Assembly (NCBI GenBank): GCA_964462795.1
Contig: CAYWZG010000001.1
Location: 3,197 to 67,196, forward strand
Direction: 5' to 3'
From: an uncultured Methanotrichaceae archaeon
GTDB taxonomy: Archaea; Halobacteriota; Methanosarcinia; Methanotrichales; Methanotrichaceae
Length of the DNA stretch: 64,000 nt
In this document: positions 566 to 62,497 of the stretch, piece by piece
Numbering within the stretch: the first letter of the stretch is position 1
Layout of the letters: each line of letters begins with the position of its first letter
Program-made: the position numbers and the translations under genes
Notes under the pieces: model-generated
Told to the model about the DNA's origin: nothing
Databases searched by the model: none
Seen by the model: the letters and a program-made list of their open reading frames with translations, nothing else

Positions 566-694
566 TATAGTGTTTAATGATACCTTTCGGACAAATGTCG
601 AACTCGTAAGAGTTCGACATTTTGGCCTATTCGTGTCGTTAAACACTAATCTTTCGAGAACCGATCCGTCTCACCTAATCGGTTCTCGACTATA
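566..694 (+). repeat. Bipartite palindromic intergenic repeat, full copy (module A then module B)
   Basis: Sequence runs TATAGTGTTTAATGATACC...inner hairpin ATGTCGAACTC/GAGTTCGACAT...GTCGTTAAACACTA, then TCGAGAACCGAT...ATCGGTTCTCGACTATA. It starts 5 nt after the upstream stop codon and resembles the copies at 13472, 33984, 59544 and 62369. Confidence 0.9.
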
Positions 695-807
695 AACCAC
701 CCTAACTTGAAGATGCTTCAACTTTTTGGCAGCATCGATCCATTGCCCCCTTTCGAACGAGCCTTGAACCCTCGAAAAACGGGGGCGGTTCATTCCCCTA
801 CAAACCT

Positions 808-1869: not shown

Positions 1870-1904
1870 TTTTTCATCCTCAGATTGTCATTGCATGGTA
1901 ACAT

Positions 1905-1970
1905 ATTCGTATCGTTAAGCACCATTCTTGCGAGAACCAATAAGTTTCATCTAATCAGTTCTTGACTATA
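1905..1970 (+). repeat. Partial copy of the intergenic repeat (right arm of module A plus module B)
   Basis: ATTCGTATCGTTAAGCACCATTCTTGCGAGAACCAATAAG...CTAATCAGTTCTTGACTATA. Confidence 0.8.
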
Positions 1971-13440: not shown

Positions 13441-13471
13441 CTCAGTTTTCACCTTTACACCATCCTATGTG

Positions 13472-13613
13472 TAGTGTTTAACGATACCTTTCGGACAACT
13501 GTCGAACTCTCATGAGTTCGACATTTTGACCTATTCGTATCGTTAAGCACTAATCTTTCGAGAACCAACTAGTTTCATCTAACCGGTCCCCGACTATAAT
13601 TGGTTCTCGAACA
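13472..13613 (+). repeat. Intergenic repeat, full copy (A+B) with a displaced extra right arm of module B
   Basis: TAGTGTTTAACGATACCTTTCGGACAACTGTCGAACTCTCATGAGTTCGACA...GTATCGTTAAGCACTAATCTTTCGAGAACCAACTAG...GACTATAATTGGTTCTCGA. Confidence 0.9.
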
Positions 13614-14121: not shown

Positions 14122-14213
14122 TATAGTGCTTAAAGATACCTTTCGGATAAGTGTCGAACTCTCATGAGTTCAACATTTTTAAAATTATCCCAAAGGTACT
14201 GTCAAACACTATA
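14122..14213 (+). repeat. Intergenic repeat, module A only (diverged right arm)
   Basis: TATAGTGCTTAAAGATACCTTTCGGATAAGTGTCGAACTCTCATGAGTTCAACA...CCCAAAGGTACTGTCAAACACTATA. Confidence 0.8.
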
Positions 14214-33983: not shown

Positions 33984-34111
33984 TATAGCGCTTAACGATA
34001 CCTTTCGGACAAATCTCTAACTCGTGATAGTTTGAGATTTGTCCCATTCGTATCGTTAAGCACTAATCTTTCGAGAACCGATTAGTCTCATCTGATCGGT
34101 TCTTGACTATA
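33984..34111 (+). repeat. Intergenic repeat, full copy (A+B)
   Basis: TATAGCGCTTAACGATACCTTTCGGACAAATCTCTAACTCGTGATAGTTTGAGATTT...GTATCGTTAAGCACTAATCTTTCGAGAACCGATTAG...GATCGGTTCTTGACTATA. It begins 18 nt after the giant gene's stop. Confidence 0.9.
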
Positions 34112-34169
34112 ATCAACAAACACAAATCACGTCACAACTCTTACATATTATGGAAACTTACCTTTCCAT

Positions 34170-40040: not shown

Positions 40041-40105
40041 GTATAATAGTCGAGAACCAATTAGATGAAACTAATTGGTTCTCGCCAGAATAGCGTTTAA
40101 CGATA
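40041..40105 (-). repeat. Partial intergenic repeat, reverse orientation (module B plus proximal arm of module A)
   Basis: TATAATAGTCGAGAACCAATTAGATGAAACTAATTGGTTCTCGCCAGAATAGCGTTTAACGATAC. Confidence 0.85.
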
Positions 40106-40351
40106 CTTAAAGAAAAAAGAGCAAATTGAATCTTTGATGATCATGGTCATCGCACTTTTGGTATTCAACTATACAAAACGAAAATTGCGTGAGAATTTAG
40201 AAAACCTACAAAAAGGCCTACAATGAAATGGCATTTCTTCCCCTTCACTGGTGTTACAAAAGTGCTCGCCAAAACACACTAATTTTGTGGATAAATAAAA
40301 ATATGCCAGGCGTTCTGCCTGGCTCATATCATAGAACAATATCGCTTCACG

Positions 40352-41558: not shown

Positions 41559-41664
41559 ATATAATCGAGAACCAATTAGAAACTAATTGGTTCTCACCAG
41601 AATAGTGCTATAACGATACGAATAGGTCAGATCTCAAACTCTTACGTTTTTGATATTTGTCCTA
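41559..41664 (-). repeat. Intergenic repeat, reverse orientation, distal arm of module A truncated
   Basis: TATAATCGAGAACCAATTAGAAACTAATTGGTTCTCACCAGAATAGTGCTATAACGATACGAATAGGTCAGATCTCAAACTCTTACG... Confidence 0.85.
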
Positions 41665-41735
41665 CCCGTGCCATCGAACGGTTCTTGACCGTAGTTTCTG
41701 CAGATAGATTCGTAAGGCAAGAAGGCGTTACATAT

Positions 41736-50765: not shown

Positions 50766-52163
50766 TTAATCGCCCTCTATGTCCTGAGCTTTCACAGGCT
50801 CCAGATCGCTGGGCTTGATACATATGCGGTTGCCCAGCACCTCATCCCACTCTTGATATTCCAGGTAAGGATTGTGAGGTATCTCCACATCTAGTCCCAT
50901 GAGGACGGCCATTATCTCCACCTGGTCCGCAAAGGGCATCTTGGATCCGCTGGAGTTTCTGCCGTCCATTATGTTTCGTCTGCAGAAGGGACAGGTACTG
51001 GACATTATCTCTGCGCCCACCTCTTCTCCATCTCTTACTCTTGCCTCGGCACATCCCAAAGCTAGGTCAGCTTGGCCTGCCTTCACGCCACCACCGGCGC
51101 CGCAGCACCTTTGGAGCTCTCTGGAACGCGGCATCTCGACGTACTCCACACCCGGAAATGCTTTGTACACGTCACGGGGTGCCTCAAAAGCCCAATCCTT
51201 TCCAACGTAGTGCAGAAGATGTCTGCCACTGTGACAGGGATCGTGGAAGGTCAACTTCTTGTCCAGTGAATATTTCCACTCCACCTCGCCGTTATCGATC
51301 TTCTCTCTCAGATAGACCGAAAGGGGCACGTTCTTGTAGGGTATGTATCCCTCGTACCAGCGAGGCCAGTCGATGGTGGCAGTCCTGACACAGCCAGCGC
51401 AGGCGTAGAGTACCGTCTCCACTCCTCTGTCTTTGAGAGCGTCGACGTTGTGTACTGCGTGGGCCTTCATTATATCACGCTGGCCGGTCCTTACCAGTAC
51501 CGAAGCGCAGCACCACTCGTCTTCGCCCATCATACAGAAGGGAATGTCAAGCGCGTTCAGTATCCTCACGGTGGCCACGCCCAGAGTCTGTTGCCGGAAA
51601 GCTGCGGTACATCCTGGGAAGTAGGCAATCTTCGCCGATTCCAAGACGTCTGCATCTGGCGGAACGAAACAGAGCCGGTCTTCTTGTTTTCCCTGATAGG
51701 GGTTTCGATTTGCTTCTAGTAGCTTGGGGAAAAAGTTCTGCTTGCCCCAAGGTCCGGTCCCGCGAACAACTAGGTTTGGTCTTATGGCTTCCCAGAGCTC
51801 GACTGTGTTGATGCCAGATTCGCAGACGGTACCGCAGACGCCGCAGGTGGTACACATGTAGGTATCATCCATGAACTGATCGATCTCGTCCTCGTTTAGG
51901 GGCTTGGAACCAAAGAGTTTCGCCCGGAGGCCGTGCTGACTTCCCAGAAGCTCCCTGAACTTGGCGATCTTGTACATGGGAGTTATCTCTGGTCTGTCAT
52001 TGTAAACGTCGTAAGCTGGACACCACTTCATGCACTCTTGGCATCGAGTGCATGCATCCAGCTCCATGAGCTGGGTGGATCTGAGAAATCCTGATAGGAG
52101 TGGCTTTCCCTCAGGGCTGGTTTTTGTTTCCTCTGCCATCTTATTCTCCTCCTCTGTTTGCAA
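50766..52163 (-). CDS. HdrD/DsrK/HmeD-type iron-sulfur oxidoreductase (2 x 4Fe-4S plus two CCG domains)
   Basis: CTRCQECMKWCP and CTTCGVCGTVCE ferredoxin motifs. CCG-type motifs EWCCASV and LQRCCGAGGG. Confidence 0.8.
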   Translation of the reverse strand: MQTEEENKMAEETKTSPEGKPLLSGFLRSTQLMELDACTRCQECMKWCPAYDVYNDRPEITPMYKIAKFRELLGSQHGLRAKLFGSKPLNEDEIDQFMDDTYMCTTCGVCGTVCESGINTVELWEAIRPNLVVRGTGPWGKQNFFPKLLEANRNPYQGKQEDRLCFVPPDADVLESAKIAYFPGCTAAFRQQTLGVATVRILNALDIPFCMMGEDEWCCASVLVRTGQRDIMKAHAVHNVDALKDRGVETVLYACAGCVRTATIDWPRWYEGYIPYKNVPLSVYLREKIDNGEVEWKYSLDKKLTFHDPCHSGRHLLHYVGKDWAFEAPRDVYKAFPGVEYVEMPRSRELQRCCGAGGGVKAGQADLALGCAEARVRDGEEVGAEIMSSTCPFCRRNIMDGRNSSGSKMPFADQVEIMAVLMGLDVEIPHNPYLEYQEWDEVLGNRICIKPSDLEPVKAQDIEGD

Positions 52164-52893
52164 GAATCGTCAGTGGCGCTGCAATTATGTGCATGTACTT
52201 GCTCCAGGGCAAGATTGCAACGAAGAGTGCCAGCGCTAGTATGGTGTGAAGCAAAGAGAAATGAGGTGCATATACGGAGTTCGCAAAGGCGTCACCGACC
52301 AGGAAAGAGTTACCACGCAACCACTCTGCGTAGAATCCAGTTATGGTGATCAAGAACACGCCACCGAGCAGAACGACATCGTATGCTGAGGTGTTGTCCC
52401 TCACCTGCTTGAGGAGGATTCTCCTTGCAACGCCGATGGTAGAACCGACAAGGAGCATGTAACCGAAGATGTCGAAGGGAAGTTCCATGAAGCCTTTTAC
52501 CATCTCTGCTTGGTGAGTGAGACCAAGTAGGTTGAAATGCTCAATAATATCCATGAAAAGGCCCAAGCCTGAGAGTGCTGCTAAAGTTACGAATCCGTAG
52601 AACATGGTCATGTGCATGACCCACCTAACAGGACTCCTTCTCAGGGTTCTTCTGAGAAGCAACACGTCGAGCACAGCGGTCTTTATGAATACCCATATGC
52701 CGTCCTTAAACGCCTCATGAATCCACGTGGCGATGAAGAGCCAAAAGCTGTTGCGCAGCTTATCTTGATAACCAGTAGATCCCATACCCCATTTCTTGAA
52801 ATTGAAATATAGGCCGTAGATCCATATTGCCAATACCGAAATGGTAAGGGCGATCACAATCCAAAAGGTGAGACCAAGTGTGTAAAATGCCAT
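52141..52893 (-). CDS. NarI/HdrE/DsrM-type membrane (putative heme b) subunit
   Basis: About 5-6 TM segments with conserved-looking His in TM helices (WIHEAF, WVMHMTMFYG, LLHTILAL, KYMHIIA). Overlaps the downstream HdrD-like gene by 23 nt. Confidence 0.65.
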   Translation of the reverse strand: MAFYTLGLTFWIVIALTISVLAIWIYGLYFNFKKWGMGSTGYQDKLRNSFWLFIATWIHEAFKDGIWVFIKTAVLDVLLLRRTLRRSPVRWVMHMTMFYGFVTLAALSGLGLFMDIIEHFNLLGLTHQAEMVKGFMELPFDIFGYMLLVGSTIGVARRILLKQVRDNTSAYDVVLLGGVFLITITGFYAEWLRGNSFLVGDAFANSVYAPHFSLLHTILALALFVAILPWSKYMHIIAAPLTILANRGGE

Positions 52894-53470: not shown

Positions 53471-53556
53471 ATAAGCACTTTAACGATAAGATCCGACCAA
53501 TTCGGAAACTCGTAAGATTTTCCGAATTGTCCGGAACGTATCGCCAAGCACTATAA
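53471..53556 (+). repeat. Intergenic repeat, module A only, with a different but still complementary inner stem
   Basis: AAGCACTTTAACGATAAG...CAATTCGGAAA-CTCGTAAGAT-TTTCCGAATTG...GTATCGCCAAGCACTATA. Lies 18 nt downstream of the cdhB stop. Confidence 0.8.
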
Positions 53557-53573
53557 AATGAAGAAGTGGTGAT

Positions 53574-54128
53574 CTACTTCTTCAATATTGCGATTACCTC
53601 GTCGACCGCCTCATGGTAGCCATCCTGGTCGAATGCCAGGTTGCCAAAAGTCATGTTGGCGTTGACGTGATAGTACCTGTCGATGGAGATCCTCTTGATA
53701 TCTCTGTTAAAGTTTTTCAGAGCCGAGAACATGGCACTGGAGAACTTATAGAAGATTCCCGCGAAGATTACTACATCGTACTGGCCGTTGCCGTCAAGAC
53801 CATTCCAGTCCTTGAACCGAAGATAGCTGGTCAAGGGCTGAAGCCCGATCATGTGAACGTTGTCGGTGTATCCCCTCTCGATGAACCCTTTGATGGAATG
53901 GGCCGTTGCTGCGATGGGAATGCCCGTCTTGCCGATTTCGATCGCCTTGTCGAACATTTCAGGATCTTCGAAGAACTCTGCTCCGACGACCAAAAGAGGC
54001 CTCTTTGCCTTCTTGATTATAGCGCCAATGACCTTGGTGTTGTAGGTCTTAGCCATCTCGGGCCCTGGAATCTGGGCCATCTCGAAAGGAACTGCATTCT
54101 TGGTAGTGTCGACTGCCATTTCAATCAC
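53574..54128 (-). CDS. cdhB: Acetyl-CoA decarbonylase/synthase complex epsilon subunit
   Basis: 184 aa immediately downstream of cdhA. AQIPGPEMAKTY...KRPLLVVGA pattern. Confidence 0.8.
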   Translation of the reverse strand: MIEMAVDTTKNAVPFEMAQIPGPEMAKTYNTKVIGAIIKKAKRPLLVVGAEFFEDPEMFDKAIEIGKTGIPIAATAHSIKGFIERGYTDNVHMIGLQPLTSYLRFKDWNGLDGNGQYDVVIFAGIFYKFSSAMFSALKNFNRDIKRISIDRYYHVNANMTFGNLAFDQDGYHEAVDEVIAILKK

Positions 54129-54129
54129 C

Positions 54130-56583
54130 TCACTTCTTCACCCTGATCTTCCTTTCGATGTTGGTCGGATCGAAGCTAACATCCGTCTTCCTGATAGGTC
54201 CGGGCTTGTCGCTTCCAGGCTCAGGAACGATGATTGCCTTTCTCTTCCAGTCGATCTCCCAACCGTACTTCTCCTCAAGCTCCTTCATCATGCCTTCCTT
54301 CCATTTGAGCGGAAGTTCAGAGGCGTGTCTCACGTAGAGAGGCCAGTCTGGAGGCATGCAGCCAAAGTACTTCATGCAAATGTCGCAGTAGTGGGTCAGC
54401 TTGATCATTCTGCCCTGGCTGTTGTCACTGGGCCTGAAGCAGAGCTTGGACATCATCAGCATACACTCTTCTACAGACTCGGCAACATAAAGCAGATGCT
54501 CGGGCGCTGGTTCACAGTAGATCCTGGAACCGTCCCTGGCGTCGATGATCTCCCAGTCTTCTTTCTTGTCGACCCTGCCGAGGAACGCTCTTCTGTACAT
54601 CACGCTGTGGGGCTGGCACACTGCTGGTATACCGAGCCTGTTGAAACCGGTCGCAATAGATGCGGCCTTCTGAGACATGGCACCCCAGGCGACACCACAA
54701 GCACCGACTTTACACAAGATGTAGTCAGCGATGTCGTCGTAGTTTCCACGCTCGTTTCTTCCGGCGAAGATTGTGGCCACTTTGATGGCAGCTCCGTGGA
54801 TGTGAGCGTTGGATACGCAAGACCCTATGTTGCAGATGTTTCTGCCGTCGAACCCGCCTGGGAACTGTTCCCAGATGGTCTTGCCCTCTTCATCGGTGTA
54901 AATGGACATGTCCATGGCCATGCAGCCGGTGGTTGTGACGATGTAGCCTCTGTCAACGAACTCACGAGCGATATCGTAGCACTCCTTGGTTCCGTTGGGG
55001 TAATTGGCACAGCCGATAATGGCGATGATTCCAGGAATGGTTCCCAGAACCAAGGGTGCACCCACACGCCTGATCTCTGTGTCTTTCACGGGGCCACGAC
55101 CTGCTCTCATCTTGAACTTGTGGTTCTTGATGAATTCCTGGTTTGCATAGGCGAACATGCTCAGTATGGGTATTTTCTGGGGACAAACATACTCGCATCT
55201 TCTGCATCCAACGCAGATCTCATAGGTGGAGCTGAACGGCTCAAGGTTGCCCTTGGCAGCCTCCTGGACCACGTCACCGATCTTGATGTGGGGCGGACAG
55301 ACGAACTGGCAGGAGTGGCAGTAGGTACAGGATTCTGCGTACTTTTGGAACTCCTCGTCAGAAAGGAACGTATGTGCAGCCTCGTCGGCGCGGTTTGGCT
55401 TGACGCCAATGGCGGTTCTGACGCCGACTTCGCCAGCCTTGATTGGGTCTATGATGGCAACTCCTGGCATCTTGAAGTTGACCAGGTCGTCCACGATCTC
55501 GTCGATGGGATCGTTTGTCCTGTCAGGCAGGCCCAACATGATCTTCTCGTTGGTGGCGATCACGGGAACCTTGCGGGCAGAGCACTCCTCAAGAGCATCG
55601 GTACAGACGCATTGCTCGTCAACCATGACGCAGTCCATGACGCCTGCTCGGACCAGCTTTCTCCACCAGCCCATAGCTCCTGCAACCTTACCTTTGGTTC
55701 CAATCATCCTGTATTTGTCGTTGATCTCTGCGGGATAACCAAGACCCTCACCGATTCTGGTATTGTCGATGGCAGTACAACAGACGCCGCCGATGTCAAC
55801 CTGATTCCAAAGGTCGTTGTCCTCAGTATAGAACATGGCTTCTGCAGAGCCTGCGATGTTGTGACCGTAAGTAATGAGGATGGCCTTGCTCTTGTCCAGG
55901 GTGCCCATGCCGCACTCAACCAAGGGTGCGTCCTCGTCACCACGAGGCATATCATAGGAGATGATCTGGATCATATCTGAGACCTCTTTGCCCAGTGAAT
56001 CCAGCATCCCTGCATGAAGTGCTTTGGACTCGAAGTCCATGTAGTGCCCTTCCTGACCGACGTGAGTAGAAGCCAGAAGCTGAGCCACTTCTTCCTCGAT
56101 GTAGCTCAAGACTGGTCCGAATTCTTTCAGAGTCTTGGGCTTCATGCCGGTTATTGTCCGGGTGAGTGGCGCATCTACCAAAATCTCGTCGCCCATATTG
56201 AAGGGGATATCTCCGAACTTGTCCAGACACCAGTGGTAAAGGTGTCTGCCATGGCCACAGTGAGCAGTACAACCCATCAAGACTGCCAGAAGAACGATTC
56301 TGCCCTGTTGAGCTGCCTGGTTGAGACCACAAGCACCATGCTTGTCACCGGTTAAGTCACAAGGACCGTAGGTACAAAGGGTACACCTGTCACAAATTGG
56401 AGAGTAAAATACTCGATACCTGTTCAGAAGCTTGAAATCCCAGTTTCGAAGGGTGGAGATACTCGGACAGGGATATGGTCCCATGGGCTGATCCCATTCC
56501 TCTGCCTCCTTCACGACATCGCCGATGTTAATCTGGACATTTTGCATGTCCTCGACGGCAAAGCTGCCTTCCATCTTATCCAT
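54130..56583 (-). CDS. cdhA: Acetyl-CoA decarbonylase/synthase complex alpha subunit (Ni-CO dehydrogenase)
   Basis: 817 aa. CDRCTLCTYGPCDL N-terminal cluster motif. Inserted 2 x 4Fe-4S ferredoxin domain (CTYCHSCQFVCPP, CVGCRRCEYVCPQ). GSCVSNAH motif. Confidence 0.9.
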   Translation of the reverse strand: MDKMEGSFAVEDMQNVQINIGDVVKEAEEWDQPMGPYPCPSISTLRNWDFKLLNRYRVFYSPICDRCTLCTYGPCDLTGDKHGACGLNQAAQQGRIVLLAVLMGCTAHCGHGRHLYHWCLDKFGDIPFNMGDEILVDAPLTRTITGMKPKTLKEFGPVLSYIEEEVAQLLASTHVGQEGHYMDFESKALHAGMLDSLGKEVSDMIQIISYDMPRGDEDAPLVECGMGTLDKSKAILITYGHNIAGSAEAMFYTEDNDLWNQVDIGGVCCTAIDNTRIGEGLGYPAEINDKYRMIGTKGKVAGAMGWWRKLVRAGVMDCVMVDEQCVCTDALEECSARKVPVIATNEKIMLGLPDRTNDPIDEIVDDLVNFKMPGVAIIDPIKAGEVGVRTAIGVKPNRADEAAHTFLSDEEFQKYAESCTYCHSCQFVCPPHIKIGDVVQEAAKGNLEPFSSTYEICVGCRRCEYVCPQKIPILSMFAYANQEFIKNHKFKMRAGRGPVKDTEIRRVGAPLVLGTIPGIIAIIGCANYPNGTKECYDIAREFVDRGYIVTTTGCMAMDMSIYTDEEGKTIWEQFPGGFDGRNICNIGSCVSNAHIHGAAIKVATIFAGRNERGNYDDIADYILCKVGACGVAWGAMSQKAASIATGFNRLGIPAVCQPHSVMYRRAFLGRVDKKEDWEIIDARDGSRIYCEPAPEHLLYVAESVEECMLMMSKLCFRPSDNSQGRMIKLTHYCDICMKYFGCMPPDWPLYVRHASELPLKWKEGMMKELEEKYGWEIDWKRKAIIVPEPGSDKPGPIRKTDVSFDPTNIERKIRVKK

Positions 56584-59492: not shown

Positions 59493-59543
59493 CGTTTCAA
59501 ATAAAGATGCCCTTGAAGAACTGAAACCAATTTTTTAGGATTT

Positions 59544-59671
59544 TGTAGTCGAGAACCAATTGGATGAGACTAACTGGTTTTCGCCAGAATAGTGTTTAAC
59601 GATATGAATAGGTCAAATTTCAAACTCTTACAAGTTTGAAATTTGTCTGAAAGGTATCGTTAAGCACTATT
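59544..59671 (-). repeat. Intergenic repeat, full copy, reverse orientation (B then A)
   Basis: TGTAGTCGAGAACCAATTGG...CTGGTTTTCGCCAGAATAGTGTTTAACGATATGAATAGGTCAAATTTCAAACTCTTACAAGTTTGAAATTTGTCTGAAAGGTATCGTTAAGCACTAT. Confidence 0.9.
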
Positions 59672-62272: not shown

Positions 62273-62368
62273 ATCACCCATCATTAAAGTGACGGGCATT
62301 TGACGTGCCCGGGTTTACCAGATCATCAATTGGGAGATAATATAATTGATAATCGATAGGAACGAATT

Positions 62369-62497
62369 TATAGTCAAGAACCGATTAGATAACACTAATC
62401 AGTTCTCACCAGAATAGTGCTTAACGATACGAATAGGCCAAATCTCAAACTCTTGCGAGTTAGAGATTTAGCTCAAAGGTATCGTTAAGCACTATAG
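62369..62497 (-). repeat. Intergenic repeat, full copy, reverse orientation
   Basis: TATAGTCAAGAACCGATTAG...CTAATCAGTTCTCACCAGAATAGTGCTTAACGATACGAATAGGCCAAATCTCAAACTCTTGCGAGTTAGAGATTT...AAAGGTATCGTTAAGCACTATAG. Confidence 0.9.

Follow-up and report, generated by a model that had tools for sequence, protein, structure and literature searches.

Paired stem changes in an abundant, TA-duplicating palindromic MITE of a Methanotrichaceae archaeon

MITEs, IS630 derivatives that duplicate a TA dinucleotide, and hairpin repeats with correlated mutations in their arms are all already known. The MITEs of the IS630/Tc1-mariner group, among them Nezha of cyanobacteria and Stowaway of plants, are short and non-coding, carry terminal inverted repeats and duplicate TA upon insertion; they reach high copy numbers between genes, in genomes that also hold an IS630-type transposase with a matching terminus. 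The repeat family described here resembles them in each of these traits, the comparison being one of traits. Unlike Nezha and Stowaway, it resides in an archaeal host of the Methanotrichaceae, its two composite termini are only weakly alike, and it is bipartite, a long palindromic module A being joined to a fold-back insertion-sequence end (module B), with each module mobile alone.

The Correia or NEMIS elements of Neisseria are similar in size (~100-150 bp) and abundance (one per ~10 kb), in their TA duplication, in their potential to form a long hairpin and in having internal inversion variants. Their termini begin with TATAG, as do those of the present family, and no homology is known beyond the first few terminal bases. 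They are, however, bacterial and have no known parent transposase, whereas the MITE described here has a candidate parent. The REP and REPIN sequences associated with the Y1 transposase RAYT are likewise interspersed, hairpin-forming repeats with correlated mutations in the two arms. REPINs differ in that they make no target duplication and that the RAYT gene is flanked by REPs, whereas here TA is duplicated and the IS200/IS605-type Y1 genes are unflanked.

Matched changes in two arms can also arise by template-switch mutation within a quasi-palindrome (the Ripley/Lovett model), which perfects an imperfect inverted repeat by multi-nucleotide changes in one step, inverts the spacer, and gives rise to apparent compensatory substitutions without selection (Monttinen and Loytynoja 2022, PMC8794818). 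The same process creates and maintains hairpins and produces multibase compensatory changes (PMC8794818); it also homogenises the arms of inverted repeats and inverts their spacers (PMC8604942). Most descriptions of template-switch mutation come from bacteria, yeast, primates and rRNA genes; here the substrate would be a multi-copy archaeal MITE, the mechanism being deduced from sequence patterns. A large census recorded MITEs in 20% of archaeal genomes, with a maximum of 251 in any one archaeal genome (PMC11602168). In the literature on Methanothrix/Methanosaeta we found no description of the present IS630-type family, which apparently is undescribed; its copy number is unusually high by archaeal standards, and its footprints of the template-switching kind are unusually clear.

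Census, architecture and mobility of the repeat

The window analysed is a 64-kb stretch (64,000 nucleotides) of a Methanotrichaceae genome (G000) of 2.43 Mb, which is assembled in 188 contigs and has a GC content of 49%. A profile built from five copies in the window was run genome-wide and found 290 non-overlapping loci of a ~131-nt two-hairpin repeat. Full-length copies (module A plus module B) make up 157 of these loci, and 40 more have module A alone or with a truncated B; the remainder are B-containing fragments (65 loci) and other partial copies (28 loci). The ~290 loci take up 1.2% of the 2.4-Mb genome, and 276 of the 290 are intergenic on a crude ORF map. The copies in the window are the following.

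566..698, plus strand: full-length A+B element, inner stem class GTCGAAC/GTTCGAC
1901..1970, plus strand: truncated copy that retains module B and the 3' arm of module A
13470..13602, plus strand: full-length A+B element with loop TCAT; an orthologous copy (o45) is present in the sister genome G001
14122..14211, plus strand: module-A-only copy flanked by TA
33984..34114, plus strand: full-length A+B element with one T:T mismatch in an inner stem of class CTCTAAC/GTTTGAG
40044..40106, minus strand: truncated copy, module B plus a fragment of a module A arm
41560..41670, minus strand: near-full copy with a decayed outer arm
53473..53560, strand not assigned: the copy under study, a diverged, module-A-only member of the MITE family
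59541..59670, minus strand: full-length element, inner stem TTCAAAC/GTTTGAA, perfect
62366..62496, minus strand: full-length element of the GAGCC/GCAA subfamily, one T:T (A:A) mismatch in the stem

The four inner stems quoted in the initial annotation of this DNA are all present as written and where it had placed them: ATGTCGAACTC/GAGTTCGACAT within 595-620 (arms at 595-605 and 610-620 of the 566..698 copy), CAATTCGGAAA/TTTCCGAATTG, perfect, in the copy that it delimited as 53471-53556, a perfect stem in the copy at 59544, and stems with one mismatch each, T:T (A:A), in the copies at 33984 and 62369.

The mobile unit is ~127 nt long (TAGTG...GACTA), inserts at TA and duplicates TA. Module A is a near-palindrome of 82-88 nt with 17-bp terminal inverted repeats (TAGTGYTTAACGATAC/GTATCGTTAAGCACTA), and module B has terminal inverted repeats of 14 bp (CGAGAACCGATTAG). 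The two ends of the composite element have just the letters TAGT..AAC..GAT in common. An extra solo terminal fragment, TAATTGGTTCTCGA, follows the 13470..13602 element. We observed one or two such extra fragments (TAATTGGTTCTCGAC...) behind some elements (13600-13613 in the window; copies o43 and o45 in the host genome) and a 17-nt unit that is present in the host and absent from the sister genome. These observations point to end fragments repeated in tandem or to slippage at the element's B end.

We examined mobility by comparing the flanks of elements in 0.93 Mb of G001, a sister genome of the same genus, with the host genome. For 17 full-length sister elements the host has a precise empty site, and at least 11 of these 17 filled/empty pairs display an exact duplication of TA to TA...TA, the filled site reading TA[TAGTG/TAGTC ... 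CACTA/GACTA]TA and the empty one ...TA.... Modules A and B also insert alone, TA duplications being found at one A-only and one B-only insertion. Eight sister elements of at least 100 nt occupy a site that is filled in both species. The empty sites together with the TA duplication thus identify the repeat as a MITE that has been active recently and duplicates a 2-bp TA target site. It is short (~131 nt, below 300 bp), non-coding and multi-copy (290 loci), and it combines terminal inverted repeats and target-site duplication with presence or absence at orthologous sites. The initial annotation had set the hairpin against the decay of a dead mobile element; that framing does not fit a family that is recently active, duplicates TA and has a candidate parent of IS630 type.

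Among the relatives' genomes searched, the repeat family is confined to two genera. It is abundant in the sister genome and sparse in two genomes (G006 and G020) of one other genus of Methanotrichaceae; G009 has a single 37-nt match, and the other 36 relatives searched gave no matches. Within the host genome, the orientation of the repeat in tandem gene contexts is mildly biased (77 vs 49), and its placement shows a weak bias towards convergent over divergent gene contexts (57 vs 42). We rejected orientation and context as a sign of RNA function because both biases are weak. Throughout the genome, many single genes or gene pairs have an element on either side, the two elements being 0.6-2.5 kb from each other, and the enclosed genes could in principle be mobilised or recombined by such pairs. 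A different, unassembled repeat that starts with GTAACTACTCAGCCCCCAACCACAAAATTTATTATGTTTAACGATATATTA occupies seven contig ends (C3, C44, C56, C57, C89, C145 and C148) and contains a motif, TTATGTTTAACGATAT, that resembles the module-A terminus. This repeat, too, is probably a multi-copy mobile element, and one at which the assembly breaks.

The host genome carries a gene for an IS630-family transposase that is split into two frames. Its N-terminal part has matches to HTH_32 (56.1 bits) and HTH_29 (45.6 bits) and its second part to DDE_3 (103.9 bits); a frameshift in the gene, programmed or not, is likely. The insertion sequence lies outside the window, at C15:27481-28559 and on into C136:1-~260, and since contigs break inside it, it is multi-copy. 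Both the TA target duplication and a host DDE_3 transposase with an N-terminal HTH, the hallmarks of the IS630/Tc1-mariner group, are thus found. The left terminus of the insertion sequence, TA followed by TAGTCAAGAACCAATTAGATGACACTA, and the B end of the MITE agree at 24 of 27 nt. Past this terminus the second arm of module B is absent from the insertion sequence, and module B consequently looks like a fold-back (reverse-complement) duplication of the terminus. The right end of the copy, on C136, matches the MITE poorly, and a search of half-copies and IS630 homologues found no insertion sequence with an A-type terminus; parentage is therefore just partly shown. The half-copies were rejected as insertion-sequence ends, being truncated elements, and the IS630 homologues of relatives were rejected as an A-type parent, being without similar termini. 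In the sister genome, which is 80% complete, no match to this transposase was found. That the hairpin belongs to an IS630-type MITE is close to certain, and the HTH + DDE_3 transposase is, judging from its sequence, the candidate enzyme that would move it.

The last ~130 nt of contig C22 also hold a full MITE, inserted at a TA within another copy of the IS630 transposase gene (…CAGTGTT TA TAGTCAAG…), a knock-out of a copy of its own putative mobiliser. Genes for Y1 transposases of the IS200/IS605 type are present at C29:15055-16606 and C104:3162-3527, one of them followed by a 391-aa ORF that is, on position alone, probably TnpB-like. No copy of the repeat flanks the Y1_Tnp genes at C29 and C104. 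The TA duplication and the lack of linkage between these genes and the repeat speak against a REP/REPIN-RAYT system, and the link to a Y1/TnpA-REP transposase envisaged in the initial annotation is accordingly unsupported.

The relic behind cdhB

The copy at 53473-53560 has a perfect inner stem of 11 bp, formed by CAATTCGGAAA (53498-53508) and TTTCCGAATTG (53519-53529), around the loop CTCGTAAGAT (53509-53518). Folded as single-stranded DNA, 90 nt comprising this copy gave z = -5.9 and -6.9 against shuffles for the two strands; a full 131-nt copy gave z = -11.5. Compared by hand with the family consensus, four positions per arm of its inner stem differ, and the differences, also counted by hand, amount to three fully compensated pairs (transversion/transition), one repaired T:T mismatch and one broken pair. 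The host genome contains no second copy of this relic, and an exact search for its inner stem in 185,579 species genomes gave no matches. The relic therefore does not belong to any large hidden subfamily. Its position is 14 nt past the stop codon of cdhB, in the 3' flank of the cdhA/cdhB pair (53574..56583).

53574-54128, minus strand: cdhB ORF, with the relic in its 3' flank
54130-56583, minus strand: cdhA ORF, 88-90% identical to Methanothrix/Methanotrichaceae MAGs

We take these two genes, whose names were read off the translations, to encode the alpha (cdhA) and epsilon (cdhB) subunits of acetyl-CoA decarbonylase/synthase. At 64 cdhA loci of Methanotrichaceae the relic was absent downstream of cdhB, and its sole carrier besides the host is the sister species. 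The copy is an old, A-only relic that is older than the split from this sister species.

The 5' end of the relic (53471-53486) reads AAGCACTT in place of the family's TAGTGCTT. Here the 6-mer AGTGCT has been replaced by its reverse complement AGCACT, so that the end is now a direct copy of the AAGCACT of the 3' arm. The relic's outer stem can pair only by way of G:T wobbles when the minus strand is read. Next to the cdhAB-relic region, immediately downstream and likewise on the minus strand (50766-52893), the window carries an hdrD-like gene (465 aa, CCG-domain) and an hdrE-like gene (250 aa, membrane). The ~680-nt spacer that contains the relic must also house the promoter of these two genes.

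Compensated changes and arm rewriting

Covariation was assessed in 152 distinct full copies from the host genome, placed on a maximum-likelihood tree. Four stem pairs are given below with their counts among the 152 copies and their mutual information ranks among 8256 column pairs.

Pair 31:52: CG 79, GC 27; rank 4th
Pair 34:49: TT 58, GC 33, AT 28, GT 18; rank 13th
Pair 96:113: GC 87, AT 39; rank 8th
Pair 25:58: AG 60, CG 40, AT 22; rank 28th

Columns 31-34 and 49-52, which do not pair with each other, ranked 2nd and 3rd and covary as strongly as 31:52 and 34:49. This marks the two main inner-stem classes as linked haplotypes and hence as subfamilies. When changes were counted along the tree, 31 double changes on the same branch ended in a Watson-Crick pair, compared with 1-11 for controls with slid partners and a mean of 8.3 (maximum 19 in 500 sets) for controls with random partners. 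The 31 compensated events involve 19 different pairs, and 29 of them fall on terminal branches. There were 22 Watson-Crick cells that combine a rare allele with a rare allele; 1000 shuffles gave 4.8 on average and 13 at most. The excess was replicated in an independent set of 41 copies from the sister genome: 15 pairs had a change on both sides vs 8.2 +/- 2.0 (reached in 2 of 500 shuffles), and 48 cells were changed on both sides vs 17.2 (0 of 500 shuffles), these counts leaning towards structure since the covariance-model alignment (A3) is fitted to it. An earlier covariance-model alignment (A2) had mixed the two strands of the palindrome, and the stricter A3 was used instead. The compensated changes are real and go beyond what subfamily structure alone explains. 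The covariation check on the genomic copies that the initial annotation had proposed thus came out positive. Covariation above phylogeny is one mark of a structured RNA; since template switching also yields an excess of covariation, this mark is not specific to RNA.

Tests for constraint on individual copies gave a different picture. Rare variants per column were 4.17 in paired and 4.81 in unpaired positions (p = 0.21), and rare one-sided changes produced G:T 134 times vs A:C 120 times, which indicates neither wobble tolerance nor strand asymmetry. Two further marks of a structured RNA, namely that G:U is tolerated in a strand-specific way and that one-sided changes are scarce in stems, were thus both absent from the copies, and a scan of the window at Rfam gathering thresholds gave 0 matches. 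T:T and A:G stem mismatches are present in the most abundant subfamily, and chimeras with one arm from each stem class occur at several loci; these mismatched chimeras and the mismatched main subfamily have nonetheless proliferated. Overall, no structural constraint was seen on individual copies. The columns of the B stem have fewer rare variants than the B loop (3.5 vs 7.3), which may reflect some constraint. When orthologous copies were compared in situ, 6 of 7 double differences kept a Watson-Crick pair, in an underpowered sample of ~15 usable pairs in which the total of doubles was near chance.

Several copies show one arm, or the loop, rewritten as a block. Module A has a conserved asymmetric internal loop (CTTTC opposite TATTC) which in 7 of 198 A modules has been turned into a palindrome. 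In each of the seven, the rewritten loop is exactly complementary to the opposite arm of the same copy and agrees with that copy's private or subfamily variant; rewriting has occurred in both directions. Each of these 5-6-nt rewritings needed 4-6 simultaneous base changes. Reverse-complemented loops are also present, TTAC for GTAA, TTGC for GCAA, and TCAT alongside ATGA. The loop core, which the initial annotation had described as nearly constant, is in fact variable: CTCGTAAGAG is found in 44 of 152 copies and CTCGCAAGAG in 32 of 152, in addition to the reverse-complemented forms.

The relic behind cdhB provides a further case. Its orthologue in the sister genome, at the same site behind cdhB, carries a full MITE nested at a TA in the outer arm and has lost the 24-nt inner hairpin. 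Its 3' arm, TCGAATCTTATCG, is a perfect complement of its 5' arm, CGATAAGATTCGA, the host counterpart of this rewritten 3' arm being CCGGAACGTATCG. The arm differs by 4 changes in 13 nt, whereas the adjoining flank on the cdhB side is 94% identical. Two other orthologous copies, o25 and o54, have patches replaced by the sequence of another subfamily; these are ectopic conversions, able to break or to preserve pairing. Arm homogenisation, spacer inversion and one-step compensation, all observed here, are known outcomes of template switching in quasi-palindromes.

Origin of the matched changes and its implications

The matched stem changes are probably best explained by three processes together, namely palindromic founders, template switching within the element and ectopic conversion. 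The subfamily founders would already have been palindromic. Module B looks like a fold-back copy of an IS630-family terminus, and the HTH + DDE_3 transposase is the putative mobiliser of the element. During replication or repair, template switching within the quasi-palindrome would copy one arm onto the other, so that a mutation in one arm would either be erased or become a 'compensated' pair in one step; the same switching would make internal loops symmetric and invert the loop. Short ectopic gene conversion between copies would add to these changes. From the rewriting patterns we infer that template switching, and not selection, underlies most of the compensated pairs.

If the stem classes were merely separate subfamilies, each derived from a palindromic founder, no excess covariation would be expected. 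The main classes are indeed linked haplotypes tied to module B markers, the unpaired columns 31-34 and 49-52 covary like the pairs 31:52 and 34:49, and module B, which looks like the fold-back of an insertion-sequence end, would itself be a palindromic founder. Even so, the event-based and rare-allele tests show compensated doubles in 3- to 5-fold excess; the doubles involve 19 different pairs and lie chiefly on terminal branches, and the excess is replicated in the sister genome. Founders alone also leave the self-complementarity of each founder unexplained. As the sole explanation, phylogeny is largely refuted, and we regard it as highly improbable. The possibility of separate palindromic-founder subfamilies, raised in the initial annotation as what might undo its finding, thus holds for the main stem classes and fails for the excess covariation, so that the finding is not fully refuted. 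It is also very unlikely that the arms are double-stranded sites for the same transposase or host protein and track its specificity without any hairpin. In favour of symmetric binding, the best conserved parts of the element are its outer 17 bp and its B arms, terminal inverted repeats akin to the IS630 terminus. However, the inner stem varies among copies of one genome with one transposase, rare private doubles (6:77 G:C to T:A, 9:74, 36:47) cannot reflect co-evolution with a protein, and one terminus of the composite element is unlike the other.

Selection on the hairpin, whether as single-stranded DNA, cruciform or RNA, could act for the spread of the element or for a host role such as mRNA 3'-end stabilisation, termination or processing. 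It would account for the excess of compensated doubles in two genomes, for the retention of a long hairpin with very strong fold z-scores in all subfamilies and for the lower variability of the B-stem columns relative to the B loop. The relic 14 nt past the cdhB stop codon has kept a perfect 11-bp inner stem, among the high-frequency mismatches read on the A-to-B strand G:T (5 pairs) outnumbers A:C (2 pairs), and the mild orientation bias in tandem contexts (77 vs 49) points the same way. Terminal branches, moreover, cover unsampled source lineages: each includes the history before insertion, so that single-pair doubles could equally be the survivors of selection in those lineages. Yet rare one-sided changes are equally frequent in stems and loops, with G:T (134) about as common as A:C (120); T:T and A:G mismatches are a feature of the largest subfamily, and several loci hold arm chimeras. 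Symmetrised or inverted loops are not an expected product of selection on a defined RNA, an Rfam match is absent in the window, and the inner hairpin of the orthologous relic has been deleted in the sister species. Transposition of the IS630/Tc1 type is a double-strand cut-and-paste reaction for which a hairpin is not required, which also counts against selection. We therefore consider it unlikely. The initial annotation had read the compensation as evidence of selection on structure; the paired changes stand, and exceed subfamily structure, but they do not by themselves establish selection on a functional RNA or single-stranded DNA hairpin.

A bolder reading makes the hairpin itself the unit of selection, either because the element multiplies via a folded single-strand (fold-back) intermediate or because the archaeon has recruited it, behind genes such as cdhAB, to act on RNA 3' ends or stability in either orientation. 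The compensated variants would then come from template switching and be kept by selection. We think this quite unlikely; if true, the family would be an archaeal counterpart of REPINs with an IS630-type enzyme as its driver.

Compensatory changes in a repeated hairpin alone are no proof of a functional RNA, since arm-to-arm copying in palindromic mobile DNA gives the same signature. The MITE family explains why these Methanothrix-like MAGs assemble into many short contigs, and it provides a natural data set for rates of template switching and ectopic conversion in archaea. Its insertions beside genes of central methanogenesis (cdh, hdr) could affect their expression.
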